From Acetobacterium bakii (GTDB taxonomy: Bacteria > Bacillota > Clostridia > Eubacteriales > Eubacteriaceae), in contig NZ_LGYO01000001.1 of assembly GCF_001263355.1 (NCBI RefSeq), positions 6,340 through 30,339 of the forward strand: 24,000 nt of DNA, in the 5' to 3' direction. Made by a program: the position numbers and the translations under genes. The notes beneath the pieces are model-generated. The model did not search any database. It was not told the DNA's origin and worked only from the letters and a program-made list of their open reading frames with translations. Below, piece after piece: positions 3,373-18,870 of this stretch (position 1 is its first letter; every line of letters begins with the position of its first letter).

Positions 3373-3455
3373 TCTTTTAAGAAATCTTTGATATAATAGC
3401 TCAGTTGATAAAATAACAAAGCCCTATAAAATAAAGAAGAAGCGAGGTGAATTCG

Positions 3456-3668
3456 ATGAAAGAAGGCATTCATCCTAATTACAAAAAATCAATAGTTAAA
3501 TGTGCATGTGGAAATACTTTTGAAACTGGTTCAGTTAAACCTGAATTAAAAGTAGAAATTTGTTCCGCCTGTCATCCATTTTTTACAGGAAAACAAAAAC
3601 TTATTGATACCGGTGGTCGTGTTGATCGATTTAACAAAAGATTCAATAAAAGCGATTCAGAAGAATAA
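3456..3668 (+). CDS. rpmE: 50S ribosomal protein L31, Zn-binding type A
   Basis: '[11 protein letters not shown]...CACGNTF...[26 protein letters not shown]' is a classic L31 sequence with both CxxC pairs. I chose the ATG at 3456 (SD 'gaggtga' at 3444-3450) over the upstream GTG at 3447 used by the ORF track. Confidence 0.95.
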
Positions 3669-3675
3669 CAAAAAA

Positions 3676-3701
3676 AGTCGGTTCTTGCAACCGGCTTTTT
3701 T
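3676..3701 (+). terminator. Rho-independent terminator after rpmE
   Basis: Stem agtcggtt (3676-3683) pairs with aaccggct (3689-3696), 8 bp including one G-U. Loop is 5 nt, followed by a T-run (cttttttc). Confidence 0.8.
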
Positions 3702-3866
3702 CTTGCGCGAAAGCAACGAGCCCGGTGAGTGCAGACACTTATTTGGCTATCCCTCGGGAAGTAGTCAGAAAGTTGAATCGCAGTTTGATGCTTTAAATTT
3801 GGGGAAATAATTGTTTCAACAAACAATTAGGATATAAAATAAACTATTAAATATCGGGGTAAACCT

Positions 3867-4730
3867 ATGGATGTAAAGGAAATTTTAGATTTTGGGACAA
3901 CTATTCTGAAAAAGGCTGGCGTTGAAAATCCCAGACTGGAAGCGGAAATACTGCTAAGTTATATTTTGGATTGCGATCGCGTTTATTTTTATGCGCATCC
4001 CCAGGAAAAGGTGGATCAGCTTCAAAAAGAGGCCTATTTAAAGGGGCTTGTACGACGGTGTGAAAATGAACCGATGGCATATATTTTCGGTAAAAAGGAA
4101 TTTATGGGAATGAGCTTTGAAGTGAGTCCTGATGTTCTCATTCCCCGGCCGGATACCGAGCCCATGGTGGAATATCTGATTCAACGGCTGACGAATGATT
4201 ACCCAAAGGGTGCCAAGATCTTTGATCTCTGTACCGGCAGTGGGGCCATTGGCATCGCTCTGAAAAAATTTTATCCCCAGGGTGAGATTGCCCTGGGGGA
4301 TATTTCAACAGAAGCGCTAAGGGTTGCCGGGGCTAATGCAAAGCAACTGGTTAAAGGGGCGGTCACCCTTTATCAGGGAGATTTATTTGCGGCACTGCCA
4401 AAGGATGAAAAATTCGATGTCATTGTGTCAAATCCTCCTTATATAAAAAGGATGGATATGCAGGCTCTGGCACCGGATATTTTAAACTATGAGCCCCATT
4501 TAGCACTGGATGGCGGTAGTTCGGGACTGGATTTTTACGAGCGGATCATTGCTGAAGCCAGGGATTATCTCAAAACGCCAGGGATTTTAGCCCTGGAAAT
4601 CGGGGATGACCAGGAAGTGTCGGTTATTGATCTGCTGGTAAAACATGGCTATGCCAATATCGAAAAGCATTATGATCTTGGCAGTCATGTACGATGTCTT
4701 GTTGGAGAACATATAGAAAAGAAATCATAA
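3867..4730 (+). CDS. prmC: Peptide chain release factor N5-glutamine methyltransferase (HemK/PrmC)
   Basis: 287 aa. SAM-binding 'DLCTGSGAIGIAL' and the catalytic 'NPPY' motif ('VSNPPYI'). 'EPMAYIFGKKEFMGMSFEVSPDVLIPRPDTE' is typical of PrmC. No prfA is adjacent. Confidence 0.9.
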   Translation: MDVKEILDFGTTILKKAGVENPRLEAEILLSYILDCDRVYFYAHPQEKVDQLQKEAYLKGLVRRCENEPMAYIFGKKEFMGMSFEVSPDVLIPRPDTEPMVEYLIQRLTNDYPKGAKIFDLCTGSGAIGIALKKFYPQGEIALGDISTEALRVAGANAKQLVKGAVTLYQGDLFAALPKDEKFDVIVSNPPYIKRMDMQALAPDILNYEPHLALDGGSSGLDFYERIIAEARDYLKTPGILALEIGDDQEVSVIDLLVKHGYANIEKHYDLGSHVRCLVGEHIEKKS

Positions 4731-4823
4731 TTCATAAATACTGATGACGCATAAAGAAAATTGTGATAAAATAGAAAAATAAATATTTATAGATAGAAAA
4801 CAAACCCATAGCGGAGGTATAAT

Positions 4824-5381
4824 ATGGTATCAGCAGGTGATTTCAAAAAAGGTGTAACCTTTGAAATGGATGGCAATGTATTTAGCATTATCGAATTTCA
4901 ACATGTTAAGCCAGGAAAAGGCGCAGCCTTTGTACGTACCAAGATTAGAAATGTAAGATCGGGAGCTGTGGTTGAAAAAACATTCAACCCTACAGAAAGA
5001 TATCCCAAAGCCCAGGTTGAAACCAGAGAAATGCAATATCTCTATGAAGATGGCGGTCTGTACTATTTTATGGATGGGGAAACCTTTGAGCAAATACCTT
5101 TAAATTTCGAACAGGTTGAAGAAGCATTGAAATATTTGAAAGAAAATGATAATGCCACCGTTCGTTCATTAAAAGGCATTGCATTTTCAGTGGTTGCACC
5201 AAATTTTGTTGAATTGGAAATTGTTAAAACAGATCCAGGATTTAAAGGCGATACCGCTACCGGCGCCAATAAACCTGCAACTGTGGAAACAGGTGCTGTC
5301 ATTACTGTTCCTCTCTTTGTTGAACAGGGTGATGTCATTAGAATTGACACACGTACCGGAGAGTACATGGAAAGGGTATAA
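4824..5381 (+). CDS. efp: Elongation factor P
   Basis: 185 aa. '[41 protein letters not shown]' includes the conserved modified-Lys loop 'KPGKG'. SD 'ggaggt' lies upstream. Confidence 0.97.
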
Positions 5382-5383
5382 AA

Positions 5384-5824
5384 ATGAAATATATTAATGA
5401 AAAAGTATTTTACACCAAGGGGCTTATGGATGGTTTGGATTTGGACAAAGGTTCAAATGAAGGCAAGATTTTAGTCCAGGTATTGGATATCCTTGAAGAC
5501 ATTGTAGATGCCTTAGATGGCTTAACCGAAGCTCAGGAAGAACTGGAAGCCTATGTTGAAATGGTTGATGACGATCTGACTGATTTAGAAGAATTCATTC
5601 TCGATGAAGACGGTCTTTTAGAAGACGATGATGAAGAATTTGAATTCGACGATGAAGATTTTTACGAAGTTGTCTGCCCGGAATGTGGGAATGTCTATAT
5701 TACTGAGTTTGATGCTTTTGAAAAGAATGCTGTTATCTGTCCTGAATGTGGGGAACCGTTTCGTCTGGAAGAAGAAATCTCCTGCTGTGGCGAAGACGGT
5801 TGTGACTGCCATCAGGAAGTATAA
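5384..5824 (+). CDS. Highly acidic protein with a C-terminal double CPECG zinc ribbon (conserved hypothetical; function unknown)
   Basis: 146-aa ORF starting 2 nt after the efp stop. It has a long D/E-rich central tract, then 'CPECGNVYI' and 'CPECGEPF', then 'CCGEDGCDCH'. I recall similar efp-adjacent proteins in Clostridia, but their function is unknown. Confidence 0.65.
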   Translation: MKYINEKVFYTKGLMDGLDLDKGSNEGKILVQVLDILEDIVDALDGLTEAQEELEAYVEMVDDDLTDLEEFILDEDGLLEDDDEEFEFDDEDFYEVVCPECGNVYITEFDAFEKNAVICPECGEPFRLEEEISCCGEDGCDCHQEV

Positions 5825-5843
5825 TGATTTATGGTAGAATAAA

Positions 5844-6188
5844 ATGAAAAAAGAAACCAGAAACAGCCAGTATCCGGAGATTTCGGATGAAATGGTCTAC
5901 TCTATTGTTAGCTTAGCGGCAACAGGAGTTGATGGTGTTGAACGGATGTCATTGAGAATAACCGATGAGATCATCGAGAAATTTTCGATAACGCCCACTG
6001 TAAAGGGCGTAAAGATCAGCCATGAGCCCGAAGGGCTTTTGGTTGGGGTTTACTTAATTACCGCAGCCGGAGTTGATATTGTCAAAGTTTCTAAAGAAGT
6101 CCAGGCAAAAATCAAAGAATCGGTTGAATCCATGACAGGCCTGGAAATTGCCGCGGTTAATGTAAGAATCGAAGGTTCAGGTATTTAA
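5844..6188 (+). CDS. Asp23/Gls24 family envelope/alkaline-shock protein
   Basis: 114 aa. 'ISDEMVYSIVSLAATGVDGV...VKGVKI....V.VYLITAAGVDIVKVSKEVQAKIKESVESMTGLEIAAVNVRIEG' matches the Asp23 family pattern. The asp23-nusB order is common in Firmicutes. Confidence 0.85.
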   Translation: MKKETRNSQYPEISDEMVYSIVSLAATGVDGVERMSLRITDEIIEKFSITPTVKGVKISHEPEGLLVGVYLITAAGVDIVKVSKEVQAKIKESVESMTGLEIAAVNVRIEGSGI

Positions 6189-6215
6189 GGACTCTTTCAA
6201 AAAAATTACAGGACA

Positions 6216-6346
6216 GGGGCTGTTGCAAAATAAAAAAGAACCGCATGATGGTTTTTTTGAATCTAGCTAAGCACCCGTTTATGCAAGGCTTTCATGAATG
6301 TCTTGCATACGGATGCTTAATCAGAGTTTTGTAACAGTCTCTTTTT
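6216..6346 (+). other. Nested inverted-repeat RNA structure (outer 15-bp stem enclosing two hairpins) followed by a U-run; complex terminator or unclassified structured RNA
   Basis: Hand-paired. Outer stem 6216-6230 with 6327-6341 (15 bp, 3 G-U). Inner hairpin A 6234-6242 / 6250-6258 (A/U-rich). Inner hairpin B 6268-6287 / 6302-6319 (~17 bp with a 2-nt bulge and one mismatch, 14-nt loop). 'ttttt' at 6342-6346. Confidence 0.4.
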
Positions 6347-6415
6347 GAAGTTTTGAATAAAGACATTTTTTCTAATTAACTTCATGAAATATACACGAAA
6401 AAAGAAGGAGAACGC

Positions 6416-6832
6416 ATGAGTCGAAAAAAAGAAAGGGAAAGTGCCCTGAAGGGTGTGTTCCAATTAGACTTTCATAATGAATCCGGGGATTTTAAAGAAA
6501 GCGTTGCTTATTTTTTAGAAGATAGTGAACTGGATCTTGGTTACGGGAAAACCTTGATTGAAACCACTGAGGAACATCTTTCAGAAATTGATGACATTTT
6601 AAATGATTACTTAAAGAGTACCTGGAAAATTGATCGCATCCCCAAGATAGAAAAATCAATCCTGCGGCTGGCCATCTGTGAGCTTATGTTTATGGAAGAA
6701 AAGACCCCATTTGAGGTTGTCATCAATGAAGCCATTGAGCTTACCAAATTGTATGGGGATGAGGATGGTAAAAATTACGTCAATGGTATTCTAAATAAGA
6801 TTGTCAAGGATGGACTCAATGAGTGCCCTTAG
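6416..6832 (+). CDS. nusB: Transcription antitermination factor NusB
   Basis: 138 aa, SD 'aaggag' upstream. 'RKKERESALKGVFQLDF...W.IDRIPKIEKSILRLAICELMF...PFEVVINEAIELTKLYGDEDGKNYVNGILNKI' is the typical NusB pattern. Confidence 0.93.
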   Translation: MSRKKERESALKGVFQLDFHNESGDFKESVAYFLEDSELDLGYGKTLIETTEEHLSEIDDILNDYLKSTWKIDRIPKIEKSILRLAICELMFMEEKTPFEVVINEAIELTKLYGDEDGKNYVNGILNKIVKDGLNECP

Positions 6833-7802
6833 TCTGGGAATTGATACCAGTAATTACACCACTTCGGTTGCCCTGGTGGATCAAAACGAAACAGTTATTT
6901 ATAACCAGGGTATCCTATTGGAAGTGAAGTCCGGAGAAAGAGGGCTTCGCCAATCGGATGCTCTTTTTCAGCATGTCAATAATTTGCCCCTTCTTTTAAA
7001 AGACCTGCCCCGAGGCCGGGAAATTGAAGTTGTATGTTTTTCGGACCGACCACGGCCATTACCTGATTCTTATATGCCTGTTTTCCGAGCCGGGAAATCC
7101 CTTGGCCAATCTCTGGCCGGCGTTTTAGATGCCGATTTAGTGACGGTCAGCCACCAGGAAAATCATCTTCGGGCCGCCATTTTCGGAAGTGGTTCGCCAG
7201 TCCTTAAGGATCCTTTTTGTGCGGTTCATTTCTCCGGGGGAACTTCTGAAATCCTTTTGGCAACTAGGGAAGGCATCGGTTTTCGCTGCGAAATCATGGC
7301 CAAAACACTGGATCTCAACGCCGGTCAACTCATTGATCGGATCGGGGTCCTGCTGGGATGTGCTTTTCCCGCCGGGAAGGCATTGGAAGTGCTGGCGCAA
7401 AAAGCCATCGATCATGATCAGGGGAAACACTGTATTATTCCATCGACAATGGATGGTATGAATTTCCATTTTTCCGGTCAGGAAAACCAGGCCAAAGAGT
7501 ATTTAAATAAAGGGGTGGATCCCAGCGAGGTGGCCTACAGTCTGCTCAAGGCCATTGCTAAAACCCTGTCAAAATCCATCTCCCGCTGCAGAGAAACCCA
7601 ATCCTTTCAGTCTGTTTTATTTTCCGGAGGAGTGATGTCGAATCAGATTATAAAAAGCATTCTCCTCAAGGAACTGGGAAGATCCGGATTAGCCCTTCAT
7701 TTTTCACCAGGTATTTATGCCCGGGATAATGCCCTGGGCAATGCCTTGCTGGGAATGGATCATTATAAAATTACAGGAGGCAGTCTCCATGAAAAATCCT
7801 AG
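6819..7802 (+). CDS. Kae1/TsaD-like (glycoprotease/M22, ASKHA-fold) family protein, paralog type
   Basis: 'LSLGIDTSNYTTSVALV' N-terminal ASKHA phosphate-1 motif. 'VSHQENHL' aligns with the TsaD 'VxHxxxHL' metal-binding motif. 'FSGGVMSN' lies near the C-terminus. The start is uncertain: the ORF opens at TTG 6801, with ATGs at 6810 and 6819. I chose 6819 because 'aagga' lies ~8 nt upstream. The gene overlaps the nusB 3' end. Confidence 0.7.
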   Translation: MSALSLGIDTSNYTTSVALVDQNETVIYNQGILLEVKSGERGLRQSDALFQHVNNLPLLLKDLPRGREIEVVCFSDRPRPLPDSYMPVFRAGKSLGQSLAGVLDADLVTVSHQENHLRAAIFGSGSPVLKDPFCAVHFSGGTSEILLATREGIGFRCEIMAKTLDLNAGQLIDRIGVLLGCAFPAGKALEVLAQKAIDHDQGKHCIIPSTMDGMNFHFSGQENQAKEYLNKGVDPSEVAYSLLKAIAKTLSKSISRCRETQSFQSVLFSGGVMSNQIIKSILLKELGRSGLALHFSPGIYARDNALGNALLGMDHYKITGGSLHEKS

Positions 7803-8997
7803 AATCTTAAGTGTTACCGAGGTAAATCAGTTTCTTAAAACTTTATTGGAAAGCAACAGTCTTTTAAAAAATCTGGTGATCCAGGGAGAATTGTCCAATG
7901 TTAAACGGGCGGCTTCGGGACATCTTTATTTTTCGTTAAAGGATCCAGCCAGCAAAATTGACTGTGTAATGTTTAAAAACGCGGCCATGGGTATTAAATT
8001 TGTACCAAAAGAGGGGCTGAAGGTCACCCTTCGGGGCAGCCTTGGGGTTTACCCGCCCAGCGGTCAATACCAGATTACGGTACGTTCCATGGAACCCCAG
8101 GGACAGGGGGATTTGTATCAGGCCTATCTGGCCTTAAAAGGTGACCTTGAGAAGAAGGGCTATTTTGATCCCGAGCACAAAAAAAAGCTGCCGGTTACCA
8201 TCAGCCGGGTGGGCATTGTCACGTCGCCAACCGGTGCGGCGGTTGAGGATATGATTTCCATTATTAAACGAAGAAATCCGATGATGGATATTGTGCTTTA
8301 TCCCAGTCTGGTCCAGGGTGAGGCGGCAGCGGCCAATATTATTGCCGGGATTAAGGCATTTAATGCTTTAAAGACAGTTGATGTTATTATTATTGGTCGC
8401 GGCGGCGGTTCCATTGAAGATCTCTGGGCATTTAATGATGAAAACCTGGCCCGGATAATTTTTGAATCCGAACTGCCCATTGTTTCGGCGGTGGGCCATG
8501 AAATTGACTTTACTATCGCCGATTTTGTTGCTGATCTGCGTGCCCCCACTCCCTCTGGCGCGGCAGAGTTGGTGGCAGAGGAAACCAGAAATCTGATCCA
8601 GAGTCTGGATCAGGTGAAAAACCGGATGATCCAGGCCATGAAGATCCAGATCAATCAAAATCGGGAAGTCCTCTTTAGGCTCAATAAGGATCTTTTGCGT
8701 TTTCACCCCCGGCAGCGAATTGATGAAATACGCATCAGTCTGGATGTTGTCCAGGAAAAGATGCTGCGTTCAATGAAGGTCATGATCAAAGACAACCGGC
8801 AACAGCTTAAACACCTGGAAGCCAGGCTTGACGCGGTTAACCCCACCAATGTTCTTAAGCGCGGGTATGTACTGGTGACTGACGGCAAGGGCATACCCAT
8901 TGGAACTGTTAAGGACCTTGCGCCTGACCAATCCCTGAGCCTACGCTTTAAGGATGGTTTGGTTTCGGTACGAATTGAATCGATAAAGGAGAATTAA
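7789..8997 (+). CDS. xseA: Exodeoxyribonuclease VII large subunit
   Basis: 'ILSVTEVNQFLKTLLE....L.NLVIQGELSNVKRAASGHLYFSLKD...KIDCVMF' (OB-fold N-terminus) and 'IGRGGGSIEDLWAFNDE.LAR.I..S.LPIVSAVGHEIDFTIADFVADLRAPTPSGAAE'. Start taken at ATG 7789 (SD 'aggagg' at 7775-7780) rather than the ORF-track 7717. Confidence 0.93.
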   Translation: MKNPRILSVTEVNQFLKTLLESNSLLKNLVIQGELSNVKRAASGHLYFSLKDPASKIDCVMFKNAAMGIKFVPKEGLKVTLRGSLGVYPPSGQYQITVRSMEPQGQGDLYQAYLALKGDLEKKGYFDPEHKKKLPVTISRVGIVTSPTGAAVEDMISIIKRRNPMMDIVLYPSLVQGEAAAANIIAGIKAFNALKTVDVIIIGRGGGSIEDLWAFNDENLARIIFESELPIVSAVGHEIDFTIADFVADLRAPTPSGAAELVAEETRNLIQSLDQVKNRMIQAMKIQINQNREVLFRLNKDLLRFHPRQRIDEIRISLDVVQEKMLRSMKVMIKDNRQQLKHLEARLDAVNPTNVLKRGYVLVTDGKGIPIGTVKDLAPDQSLSLRFKDGLVSVRIESIKEN

Positions 8998-8998
8998 A

Positions 8999-9214
8999 AT
9001 GGCAGTAAAAAAATTAAAGGCAAAATTAAGTCGACTGGAAGAAATTGCTTTGATTCTCGAAGGTGAAAATCAGGAAATTGAAGCATCCATTAAGTTGTTT
9101 GAAGAGGGCATGAAACTCGTTAAAGAATGTACCGGAGATTTGGATTCCCTGGAAGGAAAAATTCTTGTTCTGATTGATGGTGAGGAAAAAGATTTTGAAG
9201 GGAGAATTAGCTAG
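8999..9214 (+). CDS. xseB: Exodeoxyribonuclease VII small subunit
   Basis: 71-aa helical protein immediately after xseA. 'LSRLEEIALILEGENQEIEASIKLFEEGMKLVKEC' fits the XseB pattern. Confidence 0.9.
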   Translation: MAVKKLKAKLSRLEEIALILEGENQEIEASIKLFEEGMKLVKECTGDLDSLEGKILVLIDGEEKDFEGRIS

Positions 9215-10110
9215 TGTTAGATTTTGAATCAGCATTGAAGGAGAAGGTAAAGCGAATCAACGAGAATCTGGAGGCGGCCTTCCAACAAACCCCGGATATT
9301 CCCCCGGTGATTTTGGAATCCATGAAATATAGCCTTCAGGCCGGCGGTAAGCGGCTGCGACCGATGCTGATGATTGAAACCTGTCGATCCCTGGACGGGG
9401 ATGTGGCGGTGGTGATGCCACTGGCTCTGGCTATCGAAATGATTCACACCTACTCGCTGATTCATGATGATTTGCCAGCCATGGATAATGATGATTTAAG
9501 ACGGGGAAAACCCACCAATCATAAGGTTTATGGTGATGCCATTGCCATACTGGCCGGCGATGGACTGCTTAACTATGCCATGGAAACCATGCTTCAGGGT
9601 GCGGAAGGTCTTTATGGTGAAATGTTGATTCGATACATTGATGCCATGAAGACCATTATGAGTGCTTCCGGTATTTCCGGCATGATCGGTGGCCAGGTTG
9701 CGGATATGCAAAGCGAAAATCGGGTTATTTCCATGGATGAAATGGATTATATTCATTTGCATAAAACCGGTGCGCTACTGGAAGCCGCGGTGGATTGTGG
9801 CTGTATCATTGCAGATGCAGAGCCCGCAACCAGGGGCCGATTAACGACCTATGGTCATCATATCGGTCTGGCTTTTCAGATTGTCGATGACATTCTGGAT
9901 ATTGAAGGTAATGTGGGGGATCTCGGCAAACCCATTGGCAGTGATGAAAAAAATCACAAATCAACCTTTGTGACCTTGTATGGATTGGAGGCTTCTAAAA
10001 TTCGGGTGACTGAATTGCATTCGGAAGCTTTAGAGATGCTTAAGCCGATTGGGCAAAAAACAAAATTTCTTCAGGAATTGGCAGAGTATATCTGCACCCG
10101 GAGAAATTAA
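9214..10110 (+). CDS. ispA: Farnesyl diphosphate synthase / (2E,6E)-polyprenyl diphosphate synthase
   Basis: 298 aa, GTG start overlapping the xseB stop by 1 nt. 'GGKRLRP'. First Asp-rich motif 'IHDDLPAMDNDDLRRGKPT'. Second Asp-rich motif 'FQIVDDILD'. 'GKPIGSDEKNHKSTFV'. Confidence 0.9.
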   Translation: MLDFESALKEKVKRINENLEAAFQQTPDIPPVILESMKYSLQAGGKRLRPMLMIETCRSLDGDVAVVMPLALAIEMIHTYSLIHDDLPAMDNDDLRRGKPTNHKVYGDAIAILAGDGLLNYAMETMLQGAEGLYGEMLIRYIDAMKTIMSASGISGMIGGQVADMQSENRVISMDEMDYIHLHKTGALLEAAVDCGCIIADAEPATRGRLTTYGHHIGLAFQIVDDILDIEGNVGDLGKPIGSDEKNHKSTFVTLYGLEASKIRVTELHSEALEMLKPIGQKTKFLQELAEYICTRRN

Positions 10111-10121
10111 AAGGCGTTTTC

Positions 10122-10150
10122 TTGTTTTGGAAAAACAGCTATGTTATAAT
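10122..10150 (+). promoter_or_regulatory. Putative extended -10 sigma-A promoter directly upstream of the OLE-like RNA
   Basis: ttgttt (10122-10127), 17-nt spacer, TG at 10142-10143, tataat at 10145-10150. It lies 12 nt after the ispA stop. The predicted TSS is near 10157, just before the GC-rich block begins (~10163). Confidence 0.5.
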
Positions 10151-10154
10151 AAGA

Positions 10155-10770
10155 GTATATCAGGTGGTGCAGTATTCTAGTCGGCACTGTCGACCTTCAG
10201 GGCGGGCCTAAAAATCCGTCGAAGGGCATATCGATGAAGTCCCTTGTTTTGGCTTTTGACGCCCAGTTGAGGGCTGATTCAGGGGGTTAAGGAGGATGGG
10301 GCGATCCGCAATGGCATGCGGGCGTTGACCCTGCCTCCGTGGAGACCCGCATTTGCGGGAGTAACCTGTGAACGTGTTACCGCGAGGAGATACTGCAACA
10401 GTGTAGCCTGCCTTGAGTGGCTTAGGTGGATGGATTGACAGTTTCATAAGTTAATTGGGCCCAATGCTTAGAAATATTGCTATTCGAAACCTAATCTGCA
10501 AAAGAGGCTAAGGGTCGATTTGTGTTGCCGAGGAAAACTCCTAGGCTGTTCGAAAGAAGTATGATGGGGATTATGGTGTGCACTCAGTGGTAATTCAGTC
10601 TTGCATATGGCGACAATGCAAAATGCATAATAAAGGGAAACCGCTGGGACGGCGACGTCCCAGTCGTGCATTGGGAAATCCTGCTGGACCTAAGTCGCAA
10701 AGTTTACTTATCGTGCTGCCATCTGCTATAATAAATTATTTGAGGAATTATGATGTTTCATAGTTCCTTT
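10155..10770 (+). ncRNA. ole: OLE (ornate, large, extremophilic) RNA candidate; boundaries approximate
   Basis: There is a ~700-nt gap between ispA and a small membrane protein. It contains only short, SD-less ORFs on both strands. It is visibly GC-enriched relative to its flanks (core ~10163-10735). It holds many local stems, for example an 8-bp stem with a GCGA tetraloop at 10644-10663, a hairpin at 10346-10359, and gtaac/gttac at 10361-10380. The gene order xseA-xseB-ispA-[RNA]-membrane protein-tlyA-nadK-argR-recN is the neighbourhood reported for OLE RNA. I cannot recall the OLE consensus sequence well enough to align it by eye. Confidence 0.75.
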
Positions 10771-10814
10771 TGTTGTATAATAATGTATAAATAGTCATTG
10801 ACCCAGGAGTGTTC

Positions 10815-11387
10815 ATGAAAAAAAAATTAACAAAAAAAGAATTAAAAGAGAAGCGTCATCGTCGGTGGGTTGTTAATATTACAATCGCCACTTTTTTTAT
10901 GACCCTGCTCATCAGTTATATTTCGGATGTTTTATTATCCAATACACCTATTTTTGCTGCATTTATTATTTTGCTGGTTATTATCAGCCTGGGTATCCTT
11001 TCGGATATTGTCGGCATTGCCGTAACGGCGGTGAGCATCGAACCATTTAATGCGATGGCATCCAAAAGAATAAAGGGCGCAAAAACATCGGTAGCGCTTG
11101 TTAAAGATGCCTCCCGGGTTTCAAACTTCTGTAATGATGTGGTTGGGGATATCTGCAGCATCGTCAGCGGGGTGATCAGCATCACTATTGTGATTCAGCT
11201 GGGGAACCATTACCCACTCATGAACGTGGCGTTGATGACACTGATTCTCAGCAGCGTTGTTGCCTGTTTTACCGTTGGGGGAAAAGCGCTGGGAAAAGAT
11301 GTTGCCATGAAAAACGGCACCAGCATTATTCATGGTTTATCGGTAATCATTGCCAGTGTTAAAATAGCCATTAGAGGCAAAGAATAA
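10815..11387 (+). CDS. oapA: Small multi-pass membrane protein, candidate OLE-associated protein A (OapA)
   Basis: ~190 aa (~21 kDa). It has a basic N-terminus 'MKKKLTKKELKEKRHRRW' followed by several hydrophobic segments ('VVNITIATFFMTLLISYI', 'IFAAFIILLVIISLGILSDIVGIAVTAV', 'VVGDICSIVSGVISITIVIQLG', 'LMNVALMTLILSSVVACFTVGG'). It lies immediately downstream of the OLE-like RNA, as described for oapA. Start taken at ATG 10815 (SD 'aggag' at 10805-10809); the ORF track opens at GTG 10809. Confidence 0.7.
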   Translation: MKKKLTKKELKEKRHRRWVVNITIATFFMTLLISYISDVLLSNTPIFAAFIILLVIISLGILSDIVGIAVTAVSIEPFNAMASKRIKGAKTSVALVKDASRVSNFCNDVVGDICSIVSGVISITIVIQLGNHYPLMNVALMTLILSSVVACFTVGGKALGKDVAMKNGTSIIHGLSVIIASVKIAIRGKE

Positions 11388-11391
11388 AAAA

Positions 11392-12249
11392 ATGAAAACC
11401 ACAAAAGGAAAAGAGGAAAATTTGAAAGAACGTTTAGATAAATTATTAGTTGCCCAGGGTCACTTTGACACCCGGGAGCGAGCCAAAAAAGCAATTATGG
11501 CAGGGCTTATTCAGGTGAATGAGCAGATCAAGGATAAAGCCGGAGACCTTGTGGACACTGAAGCGACGATTCTGATAAAGGGCAGTGATATGCCCTATGT
11601 GAGCCGGGGTGGTTTAAAGCTGGAAAAAGGGCTGGCGACATTTTCATTGCCGGTTGCCGGGAATACCTTCATCGATATTGGCTCTTCAACCGGGGGATTT
11701 ACCGATTGCTTACTGCAAAACGGGGCCAAAAAGGTTTATTCTGTGGATGTTGGCTATGGTCAGCTGGATTGGAAACTGCGCAATGATGAACGGGTGGTTT
11801 CCATGGAGCGCACCAATTTTCGCCATCTCACCGGGGACGATTTCCCAGAAATGGTGGATGGCACCGTAATGGATGTGTCTTTTATTTCCATTATAAAATT
11901 ATTTGACGCCATTCAGGCCGTTATGAAACCCGGGGCCCTGGGTATTTGGCTGATTAAACCGCAGTTTGAAGCCGGCCGTGGGCGGATTGGCAAAAACGGT
12001 GTGGTCCGGGAAAAAAAAATCCATGAAGATGTTTTATTACAGGTGCTGACGGCCATTGATCAGCATGGCTTTACGGTGAAGGGTCTGGATTATTCGCCGA
12101 TACAGGGACCAAAGGGGAATATTGAATTTCTTGTTTTCGTTGAAAATAAACAAACAGATAGCGAATTTGAATGGTCCCAAAAGATTGAAAACGTAGTAAA
12201 AATAGCCCATGAAAACTGTCGAAAGAAAAAGGAACCATTAGCCGAATAG
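11392..12249 (+). CDS. tlyA: TlyA-family rRNA (cytidine-2'-O)-methyltransferase (S4 domain plus FtsJ-like MTase)
   Basis: 'RLDKLLVAQGHFDTRERAKKAIMAGLIQVN' (S4-like). 'YVSRGGLKLEKGL..F......N.FIDIGSSTGGFTDCLLQNGAKKVYSVDVGYGQL' (SAM-binding site). 'GNIEFLVF'. Confidence 0.9.
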   Translation: MKTTKGKEENLKERLDKLLVAQGHFDTRERAKKAIMAGLIQVNEQIKDKAGDLVDTEATILIKGSDMPYVSRGGLKLEKGLATFSLPVAGNTFIDIGSSTGGFTDCLLQNGAKKVYSVDVGYGQLDWKLRNDERVVSMERTNFRHLTGDDFPEMVDGTVMDVSFISIIKLFDAIQAVMKPGALGIWLIKPQFEAGRGRIGKNGVVREKKIHEDVLLQVLTAIDQHGFTVKGLDYSPIQGPKGNIEFLVFVENKQTDSEFEWSQKIENVVKIAHENCRKKKEPLAE

Positions 12250-12252
12250 GAT

Positions 12253-13128
12253 GTGAATGTGGTGAATTATTACACTAAAGAAGTTGGCATTTACTTTAAT
12301 ATGGAAAAACCGGACAGCCAGGTTTTAGGTAAAAATTGCATTGAGTTTTTGTTGAATCGGGGATTTAAAATTGCTTTGCTTAGAGGCCAAATTCAGTATG
12401 AGAATGAATTGGTGAATTATTATTCAAAAGGGGTATTTTTCAGAAAGCCGGATTGCATTCTGGTGCTCGGCGGTGATGGCACCTTATTATCGGTCGCCCG
12501 GCAATGCTGTTTTTACCGAGTCCCGATTTTTGGGATCAACCTGGGCAAGCTGGGCTTTTTAACGGAGGGTGAGGCCAATCATTATGAGGAAACCCTGGAG
12601 AGTTTCACCAAGGGTGATTATTACATCGAAGAGCGGATGATGCTAAGCTGTACCATTAAGAAAGAGAATGAATGTTCCCGGGAATACGTGGCATTGAATG
12701 ATGTGCTGGTGAAAAGTCGGGGTTTTCGGATGATGGATATCCAGGCTAACGCCAGTGGATCCACCATTGATACCATCCGGGCAGACGGCCTCATTATTTC
12801 AACCCCTACCGGTTCCACCGGGTATTCACTGGCAGCTGGAGGACCGGTGGTGGCGCCGCAAACAGATGTGATGATTCTTAATCCGATCTGCCCTCACCGG
12901 CTCCATGACCGTTCATATGTATTGCCCGGGGATGAAGTGATCACATTGGAATTTGGCGACCGGGAAAAAGAAATTATGGTCATCCTGGATGGACAAACCA
13001 ATGTGGCCATAAAACCCGAGGATGGGGTTCGGGTTGAAAAATCAATTTATTCCACAAGGCTGATTCGGCTCAATAAAATGAGCTATTTTGATCGGTTACG
13101 AGTGAAACTGTCCAATGATATAGTATAA
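12253..13128 (+). CDS. nadK: NAD+ kinase
   Basis: 'ILVLGGDGTLLSVAR' (GGDGT motif), 'PIFGINLGKLGFLTE', 'ALNDVLV', 'ADGLIISTPTGSTGYSLAAGGPVV'. The start is uncertain: GTG at 12253, 12259 or 12262, all in frame, with 'agga' at 12248-12251. Confidence 0.9.
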   Translation: MNVVNYYTKEVGIYFNMEKPDSQVLGKNCIEFLLNRGFKIALLRGQIQYENELVNYYSKGVFFRKPDCILVLGGDGTLLSVARQCCFYRVPIFGINLGKLGFLTEGEANHYEETLESFTKGDYYIEERMMLSCTIKKENECSREYVALNDVLVKSRGFRMMDIQANASGSTIDTIRADGLIISTPTGSTGYSLAAGGPVVAPQTDVMILNPICPHRLHDRSYVLPGDEVITLEFGDREKEIMVILDGQTNVAIKPEDGVRVEKSIYSTRLIRLNKMSYFDRLRVKLSNDIV

Positions 13129-13154
13129 CGTTAAAATGACTACCGGGGGGAAAA

Positions 13155-13604
13155 ATGAAAATTGCAAGACAATTAAAAATAATCGAAATAATTGAAAGTA
13201 AAGTGATTGAAACCCAGGAAGAACTTGCTCAGTCCCTCAAGGATATTGGCTTTGCCGTGACTCAGGCAACGATTTCCAGGGACATCAAGGAGCTCAAGCT
13301 AATCAAGGTAATGAGCAACGATGGGATTTCGCATTATGCACCGCTGAAAGATATGAGTGCCATTTACAATGAACGGGTAACTGCGGTTTTTAGAGAATCG
13401 GTTCTAACCGTGGATTATGTTGAAAACAATATTGTCTTAAGAACCCTGCCGGCCATGGCCCAGGCTGCGGCTTTGGCCATTGACGGCCTGGAGTGGACGG
13501 AAGTGGTGGGTACTATTGCCGGGGATGATACCATCTTTGTTTTAATCCGCAACCGTGACATTGTGCCGGAAATTGTCGGCAAGTTTAAAAAGCTGATGAA
13601 ATAA
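13155..13604 (+). CDS. argR: Arginine repressor
   Basis: 149 aa. Winged-helix 'RQLKIIEIIESKVIETQEELAQSLKDIGFAVTQATISRDIKELKLIKV'. C-terminal 'GTIAGDDTIFVL' oligomerisation/arginine-binding motif. Confidence 0.9.
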   Translation: MKIARQLKIIEIIESKVIETQEELAQSLKDIGFAVTQATISRDIKELKLIKVMSNDGISHYAPLKDMSAIYNERVTAVFRESVLTVDYVENNIVLRTLPAMAQAAALAIDGLEWTEVVGTIAGDDTIFVLIRNRDIVPEIVGKFKKLMK

Positions 13605-13616
13605 GGGAGGCTTCCG

Positions 13617-15356
13617 ATGCTGAGAAATCTCGTTGTCAAAGACTATGCACTGATTGAAAATTTAAGCGTTGATTTTAGCAATGGCCTGAATGTCATAACC
13701 GGTGAAACCGGTGCCGGCAAATCCATTGTGATTGATGCTTTGTCAATGGTGCTTGGGAACCGTGGGAATAAAAGCAACATTCGCCAGGGTGAAACTAAAA
13801 TGATTGTTCAGGGACTCTTCGATATCAGCGATCAATCTGAGATTTTAGAAAGATGTGGTATATTTGGTGTACCCATTGAGGATGGTCAATTAATTTTAAC
13901 CCGGGAAATGGATAGTCATGGTCGTAATTTATGCCGGGCCAACGGCATCATCATCACGGTCTCGCAGCTTAAAACCCTGGGGAACAGTTTAATGGATATC
14001 CATGGCCAGCATGAACATCAATCCCTGTTTCAGCGGGATAATCATCGCCAGCTGCTGGATGCTTTCGGCGGAGAGAAAAGCCAAAAATATCTTAAAGAAA
14101 TTGCTTCTTACGCCAATGCGCTTAAAAATATTCAAATTCAAATCGATGATTTGGAAGTGAATGAGCGGGAATTGGAACGGGAAAAAGAAACCCTCCAGTT
14201 TGAAATCGATGAAATTGAAAAAGCAGGATTGGAAATTGGCGAAGATGAGCGTCTTGAAGGTGAGAAACGGATTCTTGAAAACCGAGAACGGCTTTTTTCA
14301 AACATCAATGGGGCCTATGAACTGTTGCGGGGCGAAGGGCCGGAGCAGACCCCGATTATTGATGCGCTGGGGCAGCTTCAGGAAAATATTTCGGAAATTG
14401 CTAAAATTGATAATAGTTTTTTGCCAAAGCTGGAATTATTAAATGGTGTATTCAGTGAGATTGAAAGTCTTTCTTTTGAAATCAGAAGCTATCTGGAGGA
14501 TCTGGAATTTAATCTTGGTGACTTGGATGAAATTGAAGGTCGGCTTGCTCTCATCAGTCGGATGAAACGAAAATACGGCCAGGATATTTCTGAGATTCTG
14601 GCTTACGCGGATACTATTAGCGAACGACTGACAAATCTGCTTAACCGTGATGAAAATCTTCAGTCCTATTATGAAGAATTAGAGAAAACCCGGAAAAAGT
14701 ATTCTGAGATTGGCAGACAGCTTCATGCTCTTCGAGTAAAATCTGGCGGGAACCTAAAAAAATCGTTGGAAAATGAATTGCAGGATCTGGCCATGGAAAA
14801 AGCCCAGGTGGAAATTTTAGTAGATTATGATACCCAGCGAATCAGTGCCAAAGGACAGGATATTGTGGAGTTTTTAATTTCGGTTAATCCTGGTCAACTG
14901 CCAAAGCCTTTGGGAAAAATTGCTTCGGGTGGTGAAATATCCCGAATTATGCTGAGCATCAAAAGTATTTTTGGGAGTATGGATGCCATTGAAACCATGG
15001 TTTTTGATGAGATCGATACCGGAATCAGCGGACGGACGGCTCAGGTGGTAGCCGAGAAAATCCAGGCTTTATCGGCGACCCCGCCAAAAGGCCGACAAAT
15101 TATCTGTATTACGCATTTACCGCAAATTGCGGCCATGGCAGATCAGCACTTTATGGTGGAAAAACGCACCGGGGAAGCATCGGTTGACGTCAGTTTTGTG
15201 CCTTTGGATGAAAAGGGTAAAAAAGAAGAGCTTTCCCGAATGCTGGGCGGAGCAGAGGTTACCCGAAAAACCTGGGAACACGCCCAGGAAATGCTGGAAT
15301 TGAGCCAAAAAATAAAAAAAGACAAAAAAAGCAAAGAGAACAAAATATTGCCTTAA
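13617..15356 (+). CDS. recN: DNA repair protein RecN
   Basis: 579 aa. 'ML..L.VKDYALIENLSVDFSNGLNVITGETGAGKSI' (Walker A). Long coiled-coil middle region. 'ASGGEISRIMLSIK' (signature motif). 'MVFDEIDTGISG' (Walker B). Confidence 0.95.
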   Translation: MLRNLVVKDYALIENLSVDFSNGLNVITGETGAGKSIVIDALSMVLGNRGNKSNIRQGETKMIVQGLFDISDQSEILERCGIFGVPIEDGQLILTREMDSHGRNLCRANGIIITVSQLKTLGNSLMDIHGQHEHQSLFQRDNHRQLLDAFGGEKSQKYLKEIASYANALKNIQIQIDDLEVNERELEREKETLQFEIDEIEKAGLEIGEDERLEGEKRILENRERLFSNINGAYELLRGEGPEQTPIIDALGQLQENISEIAKIDNSFLPKLELLNGVFSEIESLSFEIRSYLEDLEFNLGDLDEIEGRLALISRMKRKYGQDISEILAYADTISERLTNLLNRDENLQSYYEELEKTRKKYSEIGRQLHALRVKSGGNLKKSLENELQDLAMEKAQVEILVDYDTQRISAKGQDIVEFLISVNPGQLPKPLGKIASGGEISRIMLSIKSIFGSMDAIETMVFDEIDTGISGRTAQVVAEKIQALSATPPKGRQIICITHLPQIAAMADQHFMVEKRTGEASVDVSFVPLDEKGKKEELSRMLGGAEVTRKTWEHAQEMLELSQKIKKDKKSKENKILP

Positions 15357-15420
15357 CATTTTAAGGTTTATTGGTTAAAATGGAGATTGTTAAAAATATA
15401 TTTAAGTAAGGAGAAATAAT

Positions 15421-15990
15421 ATGGAACGAAAAGTGCCCATTGGGCTATCAAACAAACATATTCATGTATCACAGGCAGATTTAGAGGTTTTATTTGGAAA
15501 AGGTTACCAATTAACTCCAATGAAGGATTTATCACAGCCGGGACAATTTGCAGCTGAAGAAAAGGTTGATGTTGTTGGACCTAAGTCTACCATCAAAGGG
15601 ATTCGAATTCTGGGACCTGTTCGACCACAGACTCAGTTGGAAGTTTCCATTGGCGATGGTTTTTGTTTAGGCATTAAAGCACCGCTTAGAAATTCAGGCG
15701 ATATTGCCGATACTCCAGGCGTAAAAGTAGTAGGACCGGTCGGAGAAGTTGAAATTCCGTGTGGAGCCATTGTTGCTGCCCGTCATATTCATATGAGTCC
15801 TGAAGAAGGCGCTGCTTTTGGATTAAAGGACAAAGATATTGTTTCAGTTCAATTGGATGGTCCTCGCGGCTTAATCCTAAATAATGTGTTAGTACGTGTT
15901 CATCCGGAATTTAAACTGGATATGCATCTTGATGTAGAAGAAGGAAATGCTGCCGGCGCCAGAAACGGCCAAATGGCAACCATCCTCTAA
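15421..15990 (+). CDS. pduL: Phosphate propanoyltransferase / phosphotransacylase PduL
   Basis: 189 aa with the two-repeat PduL pattern: 'VPIGLSNKHIHVSQADLEVLFG' and 'IVAARHIHMSPEEGAAFGLKD'. Also 'GQFAAEEKVDVVGPK', 'IRILGPVR', 'LDMHLDVEEGNAAG'. SD 'aaggag' upstream. Confidence 0.85.
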   Translation: MERKVPIGLSNKHIHVSQADLEVLFGKGYQLTPMKDLSQPGQFAAEEKVDVVGPKSTIKGIRILGPVRPQTQLEVSIGDGFCLGIKAPLRNSGDIADTPGVKVVGPVGEVEIPCGAIVAARHIHMSPEEGAAFGLKDKDIVSVQLDGPRGLILNNVLVRVHPEFKLDMHLDVEEGNAAGARNGQMATIL

Positions 15991-15992
15991 TC

Positions 15993-16775
15993 ATGCAAGC
16001 ACTGGACCCTATAGCCTTTTCTGCATTTGGATTTGATGTGCGGTGGTATGGGATTCTCATCGCTTCCGCATTACTCATCGGATTATTTATCGGTATTAAA
16101 CGTGCTCCGAAATATGGAATTGACCCGGATCTTGTTCTTGATTTCTTTCTGTATATGACTCCGGCAGTGGTGATCGGTGCACGACTCTACTATGTTATTT
16201 TTAATTTTAGCTACTATGCAGCCAATCCAACGGAAATATTAGCCACCTGGCATGGCGGTCTAGCCATTCATGGTGGAATTATTGCCGGGGTAATTGTGGG
16301 ATATATATTGTGTCGGGTTAAAAAGATTAATTTTCTGAGCTTTACTGATATGATCATTCCTGGTTTGCCCCTTGGGCAGGCCATTGGGCGATGGGGGAAT
16401 TATTTCAACCAGGAGGCTTATGGGGTTCAAACAGATTTGCCCTGGGCAATTACTGTGAATGATGCGGTTCTGGGAATGATCCGGGTTCATCCCACATTCC
16501 TGTATGAATCGATCTGGAACTTTTGTATCTTTGGCTTTCTGTTTTTCTACGAAAGCAAGTTAAAAAAGGTTAATGGCGAATTATTCTTTGTCTACCTTGG
16601 CTTATATTCTATTGGCCGATTTTTCATCGAAGGACTAAGAACGGACAGTCTCATGTTTATGGGACTCCGAACAGCTCAGCTTGCCAGTTTAATATTGGTA
16701 ATCGTCGGCTTCGGCGGACTTGTGCTGCTGCGAAAATATCCGGACCGATTTAAAGCATTACCCTGGAAAAAATAA
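15993..16775 (+). CDS. lgt: Prolipoprotein diacylglyceryl transferase
   Basis: 260 aa, multi-TM. 'VRWYGILIA', 'WHGGLAIHGGIIAG', 'GQAIGRWGNYFNQEAYG', 'HPTFLYESIWN', 'GRFFIEGLRTDSL' are hallmark Lgt motifs. Confidence 0.93.
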   Translation: MQALDPIAFSAFGFDVRWYGILIASALLIGLFIGIKRAPKYGIDPDLVLDFFLYMTPAVVIGARLYYVIFNFSYYAANPTEILATWHGGLAIHGGIIAGVIVGYILCRVKKINFLSFTDMIIPGLPLGQAIGRWGNYFNQEAYGVQTDLPWAITVNDAVLGMIRVHPTFLYESIWNFCIFGFLFFYESKLKKVNGELFFVYLGLYSIGRFFIEGLRTDSLMFMGLRTAQLASLILVIVGFGGLVLLRKYPDRFKALPWKK

Positions 16776-16806
16776 AAAGACTGCCTTTCGAGGCAGTCTT
16801 TTTTTG
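16776..16806 (+). terminator. Rho-independent terminator after lgt
   Basis: aaaagactgcc (16775-16785) pairs with ggcagtctttt (16792-16802). Loop is 6 nt, followed by a T-run. Confidence 0.85.
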
Positions 16807-17261
16807 ATAAGCTACCGTACCGGCAATTTCAATCAGTTTTTTTTCCTCTTCTTCTGTTCTTTCTTCCATTTCTTATCCCTGCGGATATCACTGCCTCCGA
16901 TAGGGAGCAGTACAATAAATAACATTTTTTTGCCAAAATAGGAGAATTATGCCAAAATATAAAAATTTATTTTTATTTATATGAGATTTCAATTAATGCA
17001 TTGCAATACTACAAAGTTTTCTATTTGCATTTCCTATAATTAACCCAAAAATCTTAGTATAATATGTAAAGGTGTAATCGGATGGATCAATGGAATGGAC
17101 AACCTTTTTTATTGACATCAATACCGACAAAAAATTGCCCAACATTAAAATTACTTCATTAATGGTTACAGCATTCAGTGTTGTATGGTTTTTTGCACGC
17201 AGCATAGTGTTATAGTATCCCTTTATTAACCTGAATTTATGATGAAAGGAAGGATAATTGA

Positions 17262-17858
17262 ATGTTAGCAGGCATTGTGCTGGCAGCGGGTCTTTCTTCT
17301 CGAATGGGAGCAGAAAAGATGCTTTTGCCTTTTGGAGAAGGCACTGTTTTAGAGGCCGCAATATCGCGTATTCCAAATGATGTGTTAGACCAGCTTCTTG
17401 TGGTTACCCGCCAGGAGATTTGGGATGCAGTTGAGTTACCCCAAATTACATCGTTTATTTTGAATCGATCGCCGGAAAAAGGTCAAGCTGAATCTCTGCA
17501 ATTGGGCATCGCTTATCTTCGTTCTAATTTTTCATATTGTCAGGGAATTTTGATATTCTTAGGGGATCATCCTCTTACTAATCCCAGATTGATTTGCGAT
17601 GTTGTTAGGATCTTAGAGGAAAACCCAAAAGCCATCGTTCTGCCAGAATACCATGGTATCATTGGACATCCAGTCGCATTCGGTTCAAAATGGTTTTCTT
17701 ATCTTGAAAACCAGAATGGCGACATGGGGGGGCGGAGGCTTATTGTAGAATATCCCGAAGCGGTGATCCGTATTCCGGGAGATGAGACCTGTATTATGGA
17801 CATGGATTCAAAAGCAGACTATAGGAGGATATTGAACTATGCCGAAAAATATCAGTGA
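17262..17858 (+). CDS. MobA/MocA-like nucleotidyltransferase (molybdenum cofactor cytidylyl/guanylyl-transferase family)
   Basis: 198 aa. N-terminal 'AGIVLAAGLSSRMG..K.LLPFG' NTP-transferase glycine-rich loop. 'GQAESL..G', 'FLGDHPL'. SD 'aaggaagga' upstream. Confidence 0.75.
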   Translation: MLAGIVLAAGLSSRMGAEKMLLPFGEGTVLEAAISRIPNDVLDQLLVVTRQEIWDAVELPQITSFILNRSPEKGQAESLQLGIAYLRSNFSYCQGILIFLGDHPLTNPRLICDVVRILEENPKAIVLPEYHGIIGHPVAFGSKWFSYLENQNGDMGGRRLIVEYPEAVIRIPGDETCIMDMDSKADYRRILNYAEKYQ

Positions 17859-18651: not shown

Positions 18652-18663
18652 ATAAAGACAAAA

Positions 18664-18692
18664 TTGACAGGCAAGGGTCAGTCAACTATAAT
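18664..18692 (+). promoter_or_regulatory. Perfect-consensus sigma-A promoter (TTGACA, 17 nt, TATAAT) with no downstream CDS
   Basis: ttgaca at 18664-18669, 17-nt spacer, tataat at 18687-18692. The only element downstream on the + strand is a terminator ~100 nt away. The next gene is convergent, on the - strand. Confidence 0.55.
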
Positions 18693-18698
18693 GAATCG

Positions 18699-18845: not shown

Positions 18846-18870
18846 GAAAGGATGTGTGCAGCTGGAGCGA

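Follow-up and report, generated by a model that had tools for sequence, protein, structure and literature searches.

An OLE RNA gene and its membrane-protein partner OapA between ispA and tlyA in the psychrotolerant acetogen Acetobacterium bakii

The ispA-oapA interval and its neighborhood

We analyzed a 24-kb stretch of the Acetobacterium bakii genome (the window, whose positions are used throughout) in which 704 nucleotides (nt), from 10111 to 10814, separate the stop codon of ispA from the start codon of a gene for a membrane protein of 190 amino acids (aa). The plus strand from 10158 to about 10775 almost certainly encodes the A. bakii version of the OLE (ornate, large, extremophilic) RNA, and the gene that follows it, oapA (10815 to 11387), the membrane partner of this RNA, OapA. 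The window corresponds to the minus strand of Scaffold1 of A. bakii DSM 8239, with window position equal to 10815 + (457380 - genome position), a formula that ispA (ABAKI_c04260), oapA (ABAKI_c04250), and the OLE interval all fit exactly.

The ispA gene (9214 to 10110, plus strand) codes for a farnesyl-diphosphate synthase (NCBIfam FPPsyn, 360.7 bits, together with Pfam polyprenyl_synt). Upstream of it, on the same strand, are efp, a gene for an Asp23/YqhY-family protein, nusB, a gene for a TsaD-like protein, xseA, and xseB, and downstream of the membrane-protein gene, also on the plus strand, are tlyA, nadK, argR, and recN. These Pfam and NCBIfam assignments confirm the order and the common strand of xseA, xseB, ispA, tlyA, nadK, argR, and recN given in the original prediction, which had been made from the sequence alone. 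The tlyA gene begins only 5 nt past oapA (11387 to 11392), and dxs is absent between the two. A. bakii also belongs among the hosts in which OLE is expected, namely, anaerobic or extremophilic Bacillota.

The interval itself, which had been put at about 700 nt and said to hold no open reading frame (ORF) with a Shine-Dalgarno sequence before it on either strand, carries no coding signal, although three ORFs of 61 to 79 aa exist mechanically (10208 to 10447 and 10480 to 10671 on the minus strand and 10578 to 10763 on the plus strand). All three gain stop codons among the Eubacteriaceae relatives; in the nearest relative (94% identical) this has already happened to two of them, and the third is interrupted in the 85%-identical relative and those beyond it. 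Substitutions have no three-base periodicity, falling on the three codon positions in the proportions 10/11/14 and 30/26/32. The core had also been described as clearly richer in G+C than the flanking coding DNA. The direction holds (0.50 in the core versus 0.467 in ispA and 0.417 in oapA; coding sequences average 0.433 +/- 0.032 and reach 0.492 at most), but the contrast is modest rather than clear.

Identity of the OLE RNA

When the whole window was scanned against 4,227 Rfam families, the only match was OLE (RF01071), at 10148 to 10738 on the plus strand, with 466.9 bits (the gathering score of the family is 50), an E value of 2.6e-134, and the complete model (positions 1 to 616) covered, so that the covariance-model check proposed along with the original identification was positive over the full length. 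With the model structure threaded onto the window sequence, 130 of the 142 pairs are canonical. The match comprises the same 591 nt (genome positions 457457 to 458047) that had already been listed as ABAKI_n00140, RF01071 'OLE' (Shin et al. 2018, RNA 24:1839, PMC6239172, Table S8).

We aligned 59 full-length OLE orthologues (alignment A2) and projected the Rfam structure onto them from the window sequence. Pairing was found in 87.0% of the alignment cells, compared with 41.7 to 45.4% when the 3' partners were slid by one to three columns, and the covariation score was 0.495 versus 0.10 to 0.14 in the slid controls. Changes on both sides of the pair, i.e., compensatory ones, occur at 106 of the 142 pairs, and none of 500 shuffles reached any of the observed measures of pairing or covariation. 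The alignment is full of indels other than multiples of three. Considering that pairing is kept by compensatory changes, the conservation of this interval is of the RNA type and not of the protein type, as had been anticipated for orthologous intervals. The RNA is about 600 nt long, with about one-quarter of its positions near invariant and some 25 covarying helices; it is a full-length member of the family with every conserved element in place, and, at 467 bits plus covariation, it is not credible that the RF01071 match is an artifact.

The membrane protein OapA

The oapA gene (ABAKI_c04250) starts 76 nt downstream of the Rfam match, on the same strand, and is preceded by a Shine-Dalgarno sequence, AGGAG, at 10805 to 10809. 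Its product matches, with 100% identity, an A. bakii protein that is named 'hypothetical' at NCBI and 'CorB' in UniRef. Published work recognizes OapA by the position of its gene directly 3' of ole, by four transmembrane helices, by a DxxxD motif, by basic clusters, and by a fold like that of CNNM proteins. In the A. bakii protein, four transmembrane helices are predicted from hydropathy peaks near residues 30, 55, 120, and 146, and the AlphaFold2 model (mean pLDDT of 85.3 and pTM of 0.73, the program's local and global confidence scores) has long helices at residues 7 to 42, 46 to 72, 99 to 132, and 138 to 166. The DxxxD motif is D108-VVG-D112. In an alignment of 20 diverse homologues of the protein, reaching down to 38% identity (alignment A1), N107, D108, V109, G111, and D112 are invariant, as are the family motifs NDVVGD and TVGGKALGK. 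There are 10 lysines or arginines in residues 1 to 17 and 6 more in the loop between transmembrane helices 2 and 3 (residues 73 to 105), and in the deduced topology both clusters would lie on the cytoplasmic face.

The top six Foldseek matches of the model in the PDB are all transmembrane domains of the CNNM family, including MtCorB (7M1T and 7M1U) and CorC (TpCorC; 7CFF and 7CFG), with probabilities of 0.98 to 1.00 and template-modeling scores (TM-scores) of about 0.47 to 0.49. The best match reported for OapA of Halalkalibacterium halodurans is likewise 7M1U (Fernando and Breaker). According to the literature, DxxxD sets OapA apart from CNNM domains, which do not have it. No PF01595 match was found in the 190-aa protein at an E value of up to 10; some of its homologues carry a precomputed one. 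By its sequence motifs and predicted fold, the product thus agrees with the published description of OapA, which is also how the multispanning protein after the gap had originally been read.

OLE-oapA loci in other genomes

A1 was used to find related loci in species-representative genomes, and the best 80 were kept, a sample dominated by Oscillospiraceae and including neither A. bakii nor H. halodurans (the latter is also not among the 120 proteins returned for the 190-aa query). An OLE-like sequence was detected by nhmmer directly upstream of the oapA homologue, on the same strand, in 78 of the 80 loci, with a gap of less than 250 nt in 75 of them, and of 16 related loci checked with the Rfam OLE model, 15 scored 258 to 529 bits. 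One of the two exceptions, L074, has just 120 nt of upstream sequence. The only clear one is locus L018, from Anaerofustis stercorihominis DSM 28733 (NZ_JANJZK010000005.1, 1 to 8522). There, the 4 kb to each side of a 43%-identical OapA homologue (match at 4001 to 4522) gave no OLE match with nhmmer, at the Rfam gathering threshold, or at an Rfam E value of up to 1.

The neighborhood is less uniform than the RNA-protein pair. Downstream, tlyA was found in 62 of the 78 loci, and in 54 of these 62 a gap of about 1.9 kb, the size of dxs, lies between oapA and tlyA; the remaining 8, which include the Eubacteriaceae, are without this gap. Upstream, ispA was found within 500 nt in only 14 of 64 loci, so it has to be rejected as a universal neighbor of OLE, the ispA-OLE junction being typical of some lineages and not of all.

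Promoter, terminator, and expression of ole

A promoter for ole can be read from the sequence at 10122 to 10150 (plus strand), where a -35-like TTGTTT (10122 to 10127) is followed by a 17-nt spacer, whose end includes the TG of an extended -10 element, TGtTATAAT (10142 to 10150). A consensus promoter scan passed over it, as its -35 element matches at just three of six positions. In 37 of 70 loci, as in the window, a perfect TATAAT precedes the conserved GCAGUAUUCUAGUC block by 8 to 35 nt, often with the TG. The published primary start of OLE (ABK_TSS0767, genome position 458037; Shin et al. 2018, Table S6) maps to 10158, 8 nt past the -10 hexamer. In that differential RNA sequencing (dRNA-seq) data set, the start has an abundance of 415,250, belongs to class N, and is labeled 'Conserved' in four conditions, i.e., 10 and 20 degrees C under autotrophic and heterotrophic growth; the start of the RNase P RNA reaches 393,330, and the starts of neighboring mRNAs range from 30 to 29,000 (PMC6239172). 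An abundant plus-strand RNA had been foreseen, and the published data bear this out for its 5' end, the 3' end being predicted.

The OLE 3' end is probably marked by an intrinsic-terminator-like element at 10742 to 10775, in which a 12-bp hairpin (10742 to 10769; -14.5 kcal/mol, z score of -5.0) precedes a U-rich tract; an equivalent hairpin and U tract follow OLE in loci L001, L002, L004, L006, L009, and L016. Another sigma-70-like site at 10703 to 10732 (TTTACT, 18 nt, and TATAAT with TG; 10 of 12 positions), picked up by the consensus scan, was rejected as a promoter. It has no published start behind it and overlaps the conserved 3' end of OLE (the UUUAC block), so that the resemblance is probably fortuitous.

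The start-site signals of oapA are more than 1,000-fold lower than that of ole. A secondary start of oapA (ABK_TSS0766) with an abundance of 55 maps to 10790, and the published 'primary' one (ABK_TSS0765, genome position 457353), seen weakly in a single condition with an abundance of 119, maps to 10842 (PMC6239172). The latter falls 27 nt inside the oapA coding sequence; such a transcript could only encode a protein from Met29, which would be without the basic N terminus of OapA. The oapA mRNA is also the lowest of its transcription unit, at 443 to 657 compared with 788 to 5,318 for the other four genes (PMC6239172). Overall, ole behaves as a strong, self-contained unit nested between the operons efp...ispA and oapA...recN, largely insulated from oapA by its own promoter and predicted intrinsic terminator, and apparently it is an autonomous promoter-to-terminator unit in many other hosts as well.

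Elements of the OLE RNA

The helix names used here were deduced from the text of OLE papers, and all elements are on the plus strand. The outer helices were derived by eye, because the Rfam model is without them, and were then scored on A2. P1 pairs 10161 to 10167 with 10719 to 10725; P2 pairs 10169 to 10173 and 10177 to 10180 with 10541 to 10549 and includes a CUAG palindrome; P3.1 pairs 10183 to 10186 with 10526 to 10529; and P3 pairs 10190 to 10197 with 10510 to 10518, the 5' strands of the four together spanning 10161 to 10197. They are 85% paired, compared with 35 to 51% in slid controls, with changes on both sides at 20 of 28 pairs. P3 and P3.1 sum to 12 bp, the length that Lyon and Breaker give for the proposed bilayer-spanning stem (PMC12265935). 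P3 is flanked by palindromes, the CUAG of P2 and an AUCGAU at 10230 to 10235 in the P4a region. In the literature, the OapA sites fall on palindromes located within P2 and P4a or close to them, and the AUCGAU, which lies in a conserved block, is by analogy a candidate contact of OapA.

P4 (10201 to 10220) was placed by the Rfam match and threading. It is a hairpin with the A-rich sequence CCUAAAAAU at 10207 to 10215 (loop at 10207 to 10214), the loop columns of which are invariant across the 59 sequences, and this loop is a dimer contact in the cryo-electron microscopy (cryo-EM) models (PMC12265935). P5/P5.1 (10240 to 10286, loop GCCCA at 10261 to 10265) and P6/P6.1 (10291 to 10338, loop AUGGCA at 10311 to 10316) follow from the Rfam alignment, threading, and covariation, helices 2 to 4 of the alignment, which cover this region (10240 to 10338), being 80 to 99% paired. 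In the literature, the P5.1 and P6.1 loops are kissing partners, and a kink-turn (k-turn) region for OapC and bS21 is placed here. The long arm P9 (10410 to 10508) ends in a palindromic apical loop, GGGCCC (10457 to 10462), whose GGCC core is conserved and which forms a self-kissing dimer contact in the cryo-EM models (PMC12265935). The loops corresponding to dimer contacts (P4, P5.1, P6.1, and P9) are therefore all present and conserved, and by analogy the A. bakii RNA may well dimerize.

P7 is a 5-bp hairpin here (10346 to 10359, CCCGC-AUUU-GCGGG), with 2 nt in place of 33 model positions. The reduction is common to the whole Eubacteriaceae group (5 bp in Acetobacterium and slightly larger in loci L003 to L006), and P7 is also shortened in some Alkaliphilus-like sequences; most others have 40 to 120 nt there. 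Published work describes natural variants in which P7 and P8 are short or absent and places neither helix among the dimer contacts, so we consider the minimal P7 to be a benign lineage variant. The original prediction had drawn attention to CCGCA and UGCGG strings reused at 10306 to 10310, 10316 to 10322, 10346 to 10352, and 10355 to 10359 as a means to form mutually exclusive helices. The strings are there, but the alternative helices were rejected: in L001 and L002, P7 compensates internally (from CCCGC/GCGGG to CCUGC/GCAGG or CCUG/CAGG), and its complementarity to P6.1 is lost. Since the closest relatives lose it through compensation within the hairpin, the sharing of these strings between hairpins is probably coincidental.

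P8 (10366 to 10401) consists of CUGU/ACAG plus GUGUU-A-CC(GCGA)GG-A-GAUAC, as given by the Rfam alignment and threading, and it is the minimum-free-energy fold. A gtaac/gttac stem had also been proposed at 10361 to 10380. Both strings exist, but this stem competes with P8, would sequester the invariant AACCUG junction and a strand of P8, and is not a feature of the family; L004 is without the complement, and L002 loses one of the pairs and keeps P8 despite a different apical sequence.

Domain 2 (P11 to P15, 10558 to 10717) contains helices 16 to 22 of the alignment, which are 78 to 100% paired. Within it, P13 (10601 to 10621) reads UUGCAU-A-UG(GCGA)CAAUGCAA, with the tetraloop at 10610 to 10613 and a bulged A10607 two pairs below it. 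According to the literature, OapB needs a P13 with a GNRA loop together with a single bulged nucleotide, and P13 has this architecture here. P14 pairs 10622 to 10629 with 10665 to 10672. P14.1 (10643 to 10664) is CUGGGACG-GCGA-CGUCCCAG at 10644 to 10663 plus a G-U pair between 10643 and 10664, folding at -16.7 kcal/mol (z score of -4.8). This 8-bp hairpin with its GCGA tetraloop is exactly as originally described, and, as it is P14.1, it is not the primary OapB site; the P14.1 GCGA loop is a weak second OapB site in H. halodurans. P15 (GGGAAAUCC) occupies 10673 to 10681.

Proposed mechanism and alternative readings

If the A. bakii particle works as described in other species (PMC12265935, PMC11332333, PMC7936274, and PMC9723947), the RNA would dimerize through the P4, P5.1/P6.1, and P9 loops, and dimers of OapA would bind the palindromes that flank P3, keeping the RNA at the membrane and perhaps even across it. 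OapB, recruited at the P13 GNRA hairpin, would clamp the P13/P12.2 junction, and OapC and bS21 would induce alternative k-turns near P5/P6. In H. halodurans, loss of the particle leads to sensitivity to cold, ethanol, Mg2+, and poor carbon sources, and by analogy the A. bakii particle would help against cold, short-chain alcohols, excess Mg2+, and poor carbon sources.

A number of points weigh against the assignment of the locus to OLE and OapA and against what follows from it. The Pfam and NCBIfam scans found no match in the 190-aa protein even at an E value of up to 10, and a PDB sequence search returned only a chance match (E value of 0.86). Since these searches came back empty, the protein was identified by its motif, genomic linkage, and fold. 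The Foldseek E values are weak (0.012 to 0.39), at a TM-score of about 0.48. The 3' end of OLE is a prediction, and what is said here of binding, membrane localization, dimerization, and phenotypes comes from work on other species. No gene for OapB or OapC was found in the 24-kb window. Finally, there is the view, discussed below, that the RNA is a catalyst.

As to what the pair does, OapA may be a CNNM-like divalent-cation transporter for which OLE RNA supplies the regulation and sensing that CBS and CorC domains provide in MpfA/CorB. This is the mechanism that we favor, although at somewhat less than an even chance; the published anticorrelation of OLE and MpfA is consistent with such a regulated transporter. 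We regard as unlikely a more specific proposal, in which the compact, P7-minimal OLE particle helps psychrotolerant acetogens to withstand cold and the terminator acts as a regulated gate on the ratio of OLE to OapA.

Among the alternatives, the strongest is that the core function of OLE is catalytic, with a ribozyme at the membrane for which OapA is merely the anchor. Comparably large, conserved, and structurally complex RNAs are as a rule ribozymes, OLE's discoverers continue to advance this idea, and the table of Shin et al. labels the RNA 'ribozyme' (PMC6239172). However, nearly 20 years have passed with no substrate or reaction found, and the MpfA anticorrelation, the structural kinship between OapA and CNNM proteins, and the Mg2+ phenotype all point to regulation of a transporter. 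The evidence from the window is neutral in this respect, and we regard catalysis as improbable, to about the same degree as the cold-tolerance proposal.

It is far less probable that the interval serves mainly as a cis-acting leader or attenuator of oapA and the genes downstream, with the terminator hairpin gating read-through. OLE does lie directly upstream of oapA in nearly all loci, a terminator-like hairpin stands between them, and the oapA starts are very weak (55 and 119), for which reason some expression of oapA may depend on read-through from the ole promoter. Yet 600 nt with one-quarter of near-invariant positions and some 25 covarying helices exceed any known leader by far, and in H. 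halodurans OLE acts in trans as an abundant ribonucleoprotein with OapA, OapB, and OapC. Moreover, the OLE start signal equals that of RNase P RNA while the oapA mRNA is the lowest in its unit, which argues for a stable RNA product instead of a leader. That the interval hides small protein-coding genes and the RNA-family match is incidental has next to no chance of being right, since the three mechanical ORFs that might suggest it are refuted by stop codons in the Eubacteriaceae relatives, substitutions spread evenly over codon positions, non-triplet indels throughout the alignment, and the predominance of compensatory pair changes.

The OLE-OapA assignment is a correct reidentification, as the RNA class, its partner protein, the neighborhood, and the A. 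bakii locus itself had already been described. The additions made here are minor: a conserved ole promoter and terminator, the minimal P7 of the Eubacteriaceae, the oapA-tlyA arrangement without dxs, and an OapA homologue without OLE nearby in A. stercorihominis (L018). Among the bacterial RNAs still in search of a biochemical role, OLE is one of the largest and best conserved, and recent cryo-EM work suggests that it may span the membrane (PMC12265935). A. bakii is psychrotolerant and has a complete genome with published RNA sequencing (RNA-seq) and dRNA-seq data at 10 and 20 degrees C, and cold sensitivity is a hallmark phenotype of OLE loss; hence, A. bakii, or its genetically tractable relative Acetobacterium woodii, would be a reasonable second system. 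Questions suited to it are the generality of the cold, alcohol, and Mg2+ roles, the dispensability of the short P7, and how the promoter and terminator on either side of ole set the ratio of RNA to OapA.

Other genes in the window

With 119 bits, far short of the TsaD family cutoff of 207.8, the TsaD/Kae1-like protein encoded between nusB and xseA (6801 to 7802), annotated as Gcp1, probably represents a divergent paralogue. As listed, its ORF shares 32 nt with nusB and 86 nt with xseA, and the actual start codons may therefore lie elsewhere. At the left end of the window, 148 to 1491 encodes a radical SAM thioether peptide maturase of the SCIFF type (TIGR03974, 633.7 bits). No ORF of at least 20 aa was found in 1 to 147; the small gene of the SCIFF precursor, expected upstream of the maturase gene, would be at the window edge or outside it. 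The gene at 1687 to 3372 encodes a 561-aa Rho factor, whose match to the family models begins at about residue 168; either the protein carries about 165 additional aa at its N terminus, or translation starts further downstream than the TTG that was called.

Past the OLE block, pduL (phosphate propanoyltransferase) and lgt form a unit of their own (15421 to 16775), with a fairly strong published start at 15389 (genome position 452806; abundance of 11,209) and an RNA-seq signal that rises about 5-fold across the four conditions (pduL from 4,444 to 23,051). The region from 17262 to 23518 looks like an acetogen methyltransferase/corrinoid module. It encodes a MobA-like nucleotidyltransferase and a YqeB selenium-dependent molybdenum-cofactor maturation protein (365.7 bits); next, on the opposite strand, are a RACo corrinoid activase, an unassigned 215-aa protein, and a PocR/AraC regulator, followed by a B12-binding corrinoid protein. 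Finally, between efp and the Asp23/YqhY gene, 5384 to 5824 encodes a 146-aa protein with an N-terminal domain of the CD1247 type and a C-terminal zinc ribbon. The yqhY gene is one of those reported to cluster with ole.

Comparison with known systems

The OLE RNA class reportedly goes back to Puerta-Fernandez et al. in 2006. OLE has been characterized in H. halodurans, and cryo-EM models exist for Clostridium acetobutylicum and Clostridium botulinum. Like the RNAs of H. halodurans and Clostridium, that of A. bakii matches the full-length model and keeps the conserved junctions and loops, with the P4, P5.1, P6.1, and P9 loops, the GNRA loop and bulge of P13, the GCGA loop of P14.1, P15, and the 12 bp of P3 plus P3.1. 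It also has oapA immediately downstream, the conserved nusB-xseAB-ispA ... tlyA-nadK-argR-recN block around it, and an anaerobic member of the Bacillota as its host. Unlike in the RNAs of H. halodurans and Clostridium, P7 is reduced to a 5-bp hairpin, and, unlike most of the sampled loci, A. bakii has no dxs between oapA and tlyA. The cluster has been described as one polycistronic transcript in H. halodurans, whereas in A. bakii ole has a promoter and a terminator-like hairpin of its own. The host is a psychrotolerant acetogen and not an alkaliphile or a thermophile.

The protein resembles H. halodurans OapA in being encoded directly 3' of ole, in its length of about 190 aa, in its four predicted transmembrane helices, in the invariant DxxxD, in the basic clusters, and in a predicted fold that is nearest to the CNNM/CorB transmembrane domains. 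This predicted fold is also what it shares with transporters of the MpfA/CorB/CorC type, which are built of PF01595, a CBS pair, and CorC_HlyC; the link to Mg2+ tolerance comes from the literature. However, CorB has three transmembrane helices and A. bakii OapA four, CNNM domains are without the DxxxD and OapA is without a PF01595 match, and the 190 aa of OapA include no CBS or CorC domain and leave no room for them. In the absence of these domains, OapA is not an MpfA/CorB-type transporter. It is a distant relative of the CNNM family and not a member, and it may work like the transmembrane part of such a transporter.

Among other large RNAs, GOLLD, ROOL, the raiA motif, and HEARO are, like OLE, highly structured and form homo-oligomers in cryo-EM. 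Their covariance models are unrelated to that of OLE, the only one to match the window. To our knowledge, OLE is also the only one of these large ornate RNA classes that has been described with a dedicated membrane-protein partner.

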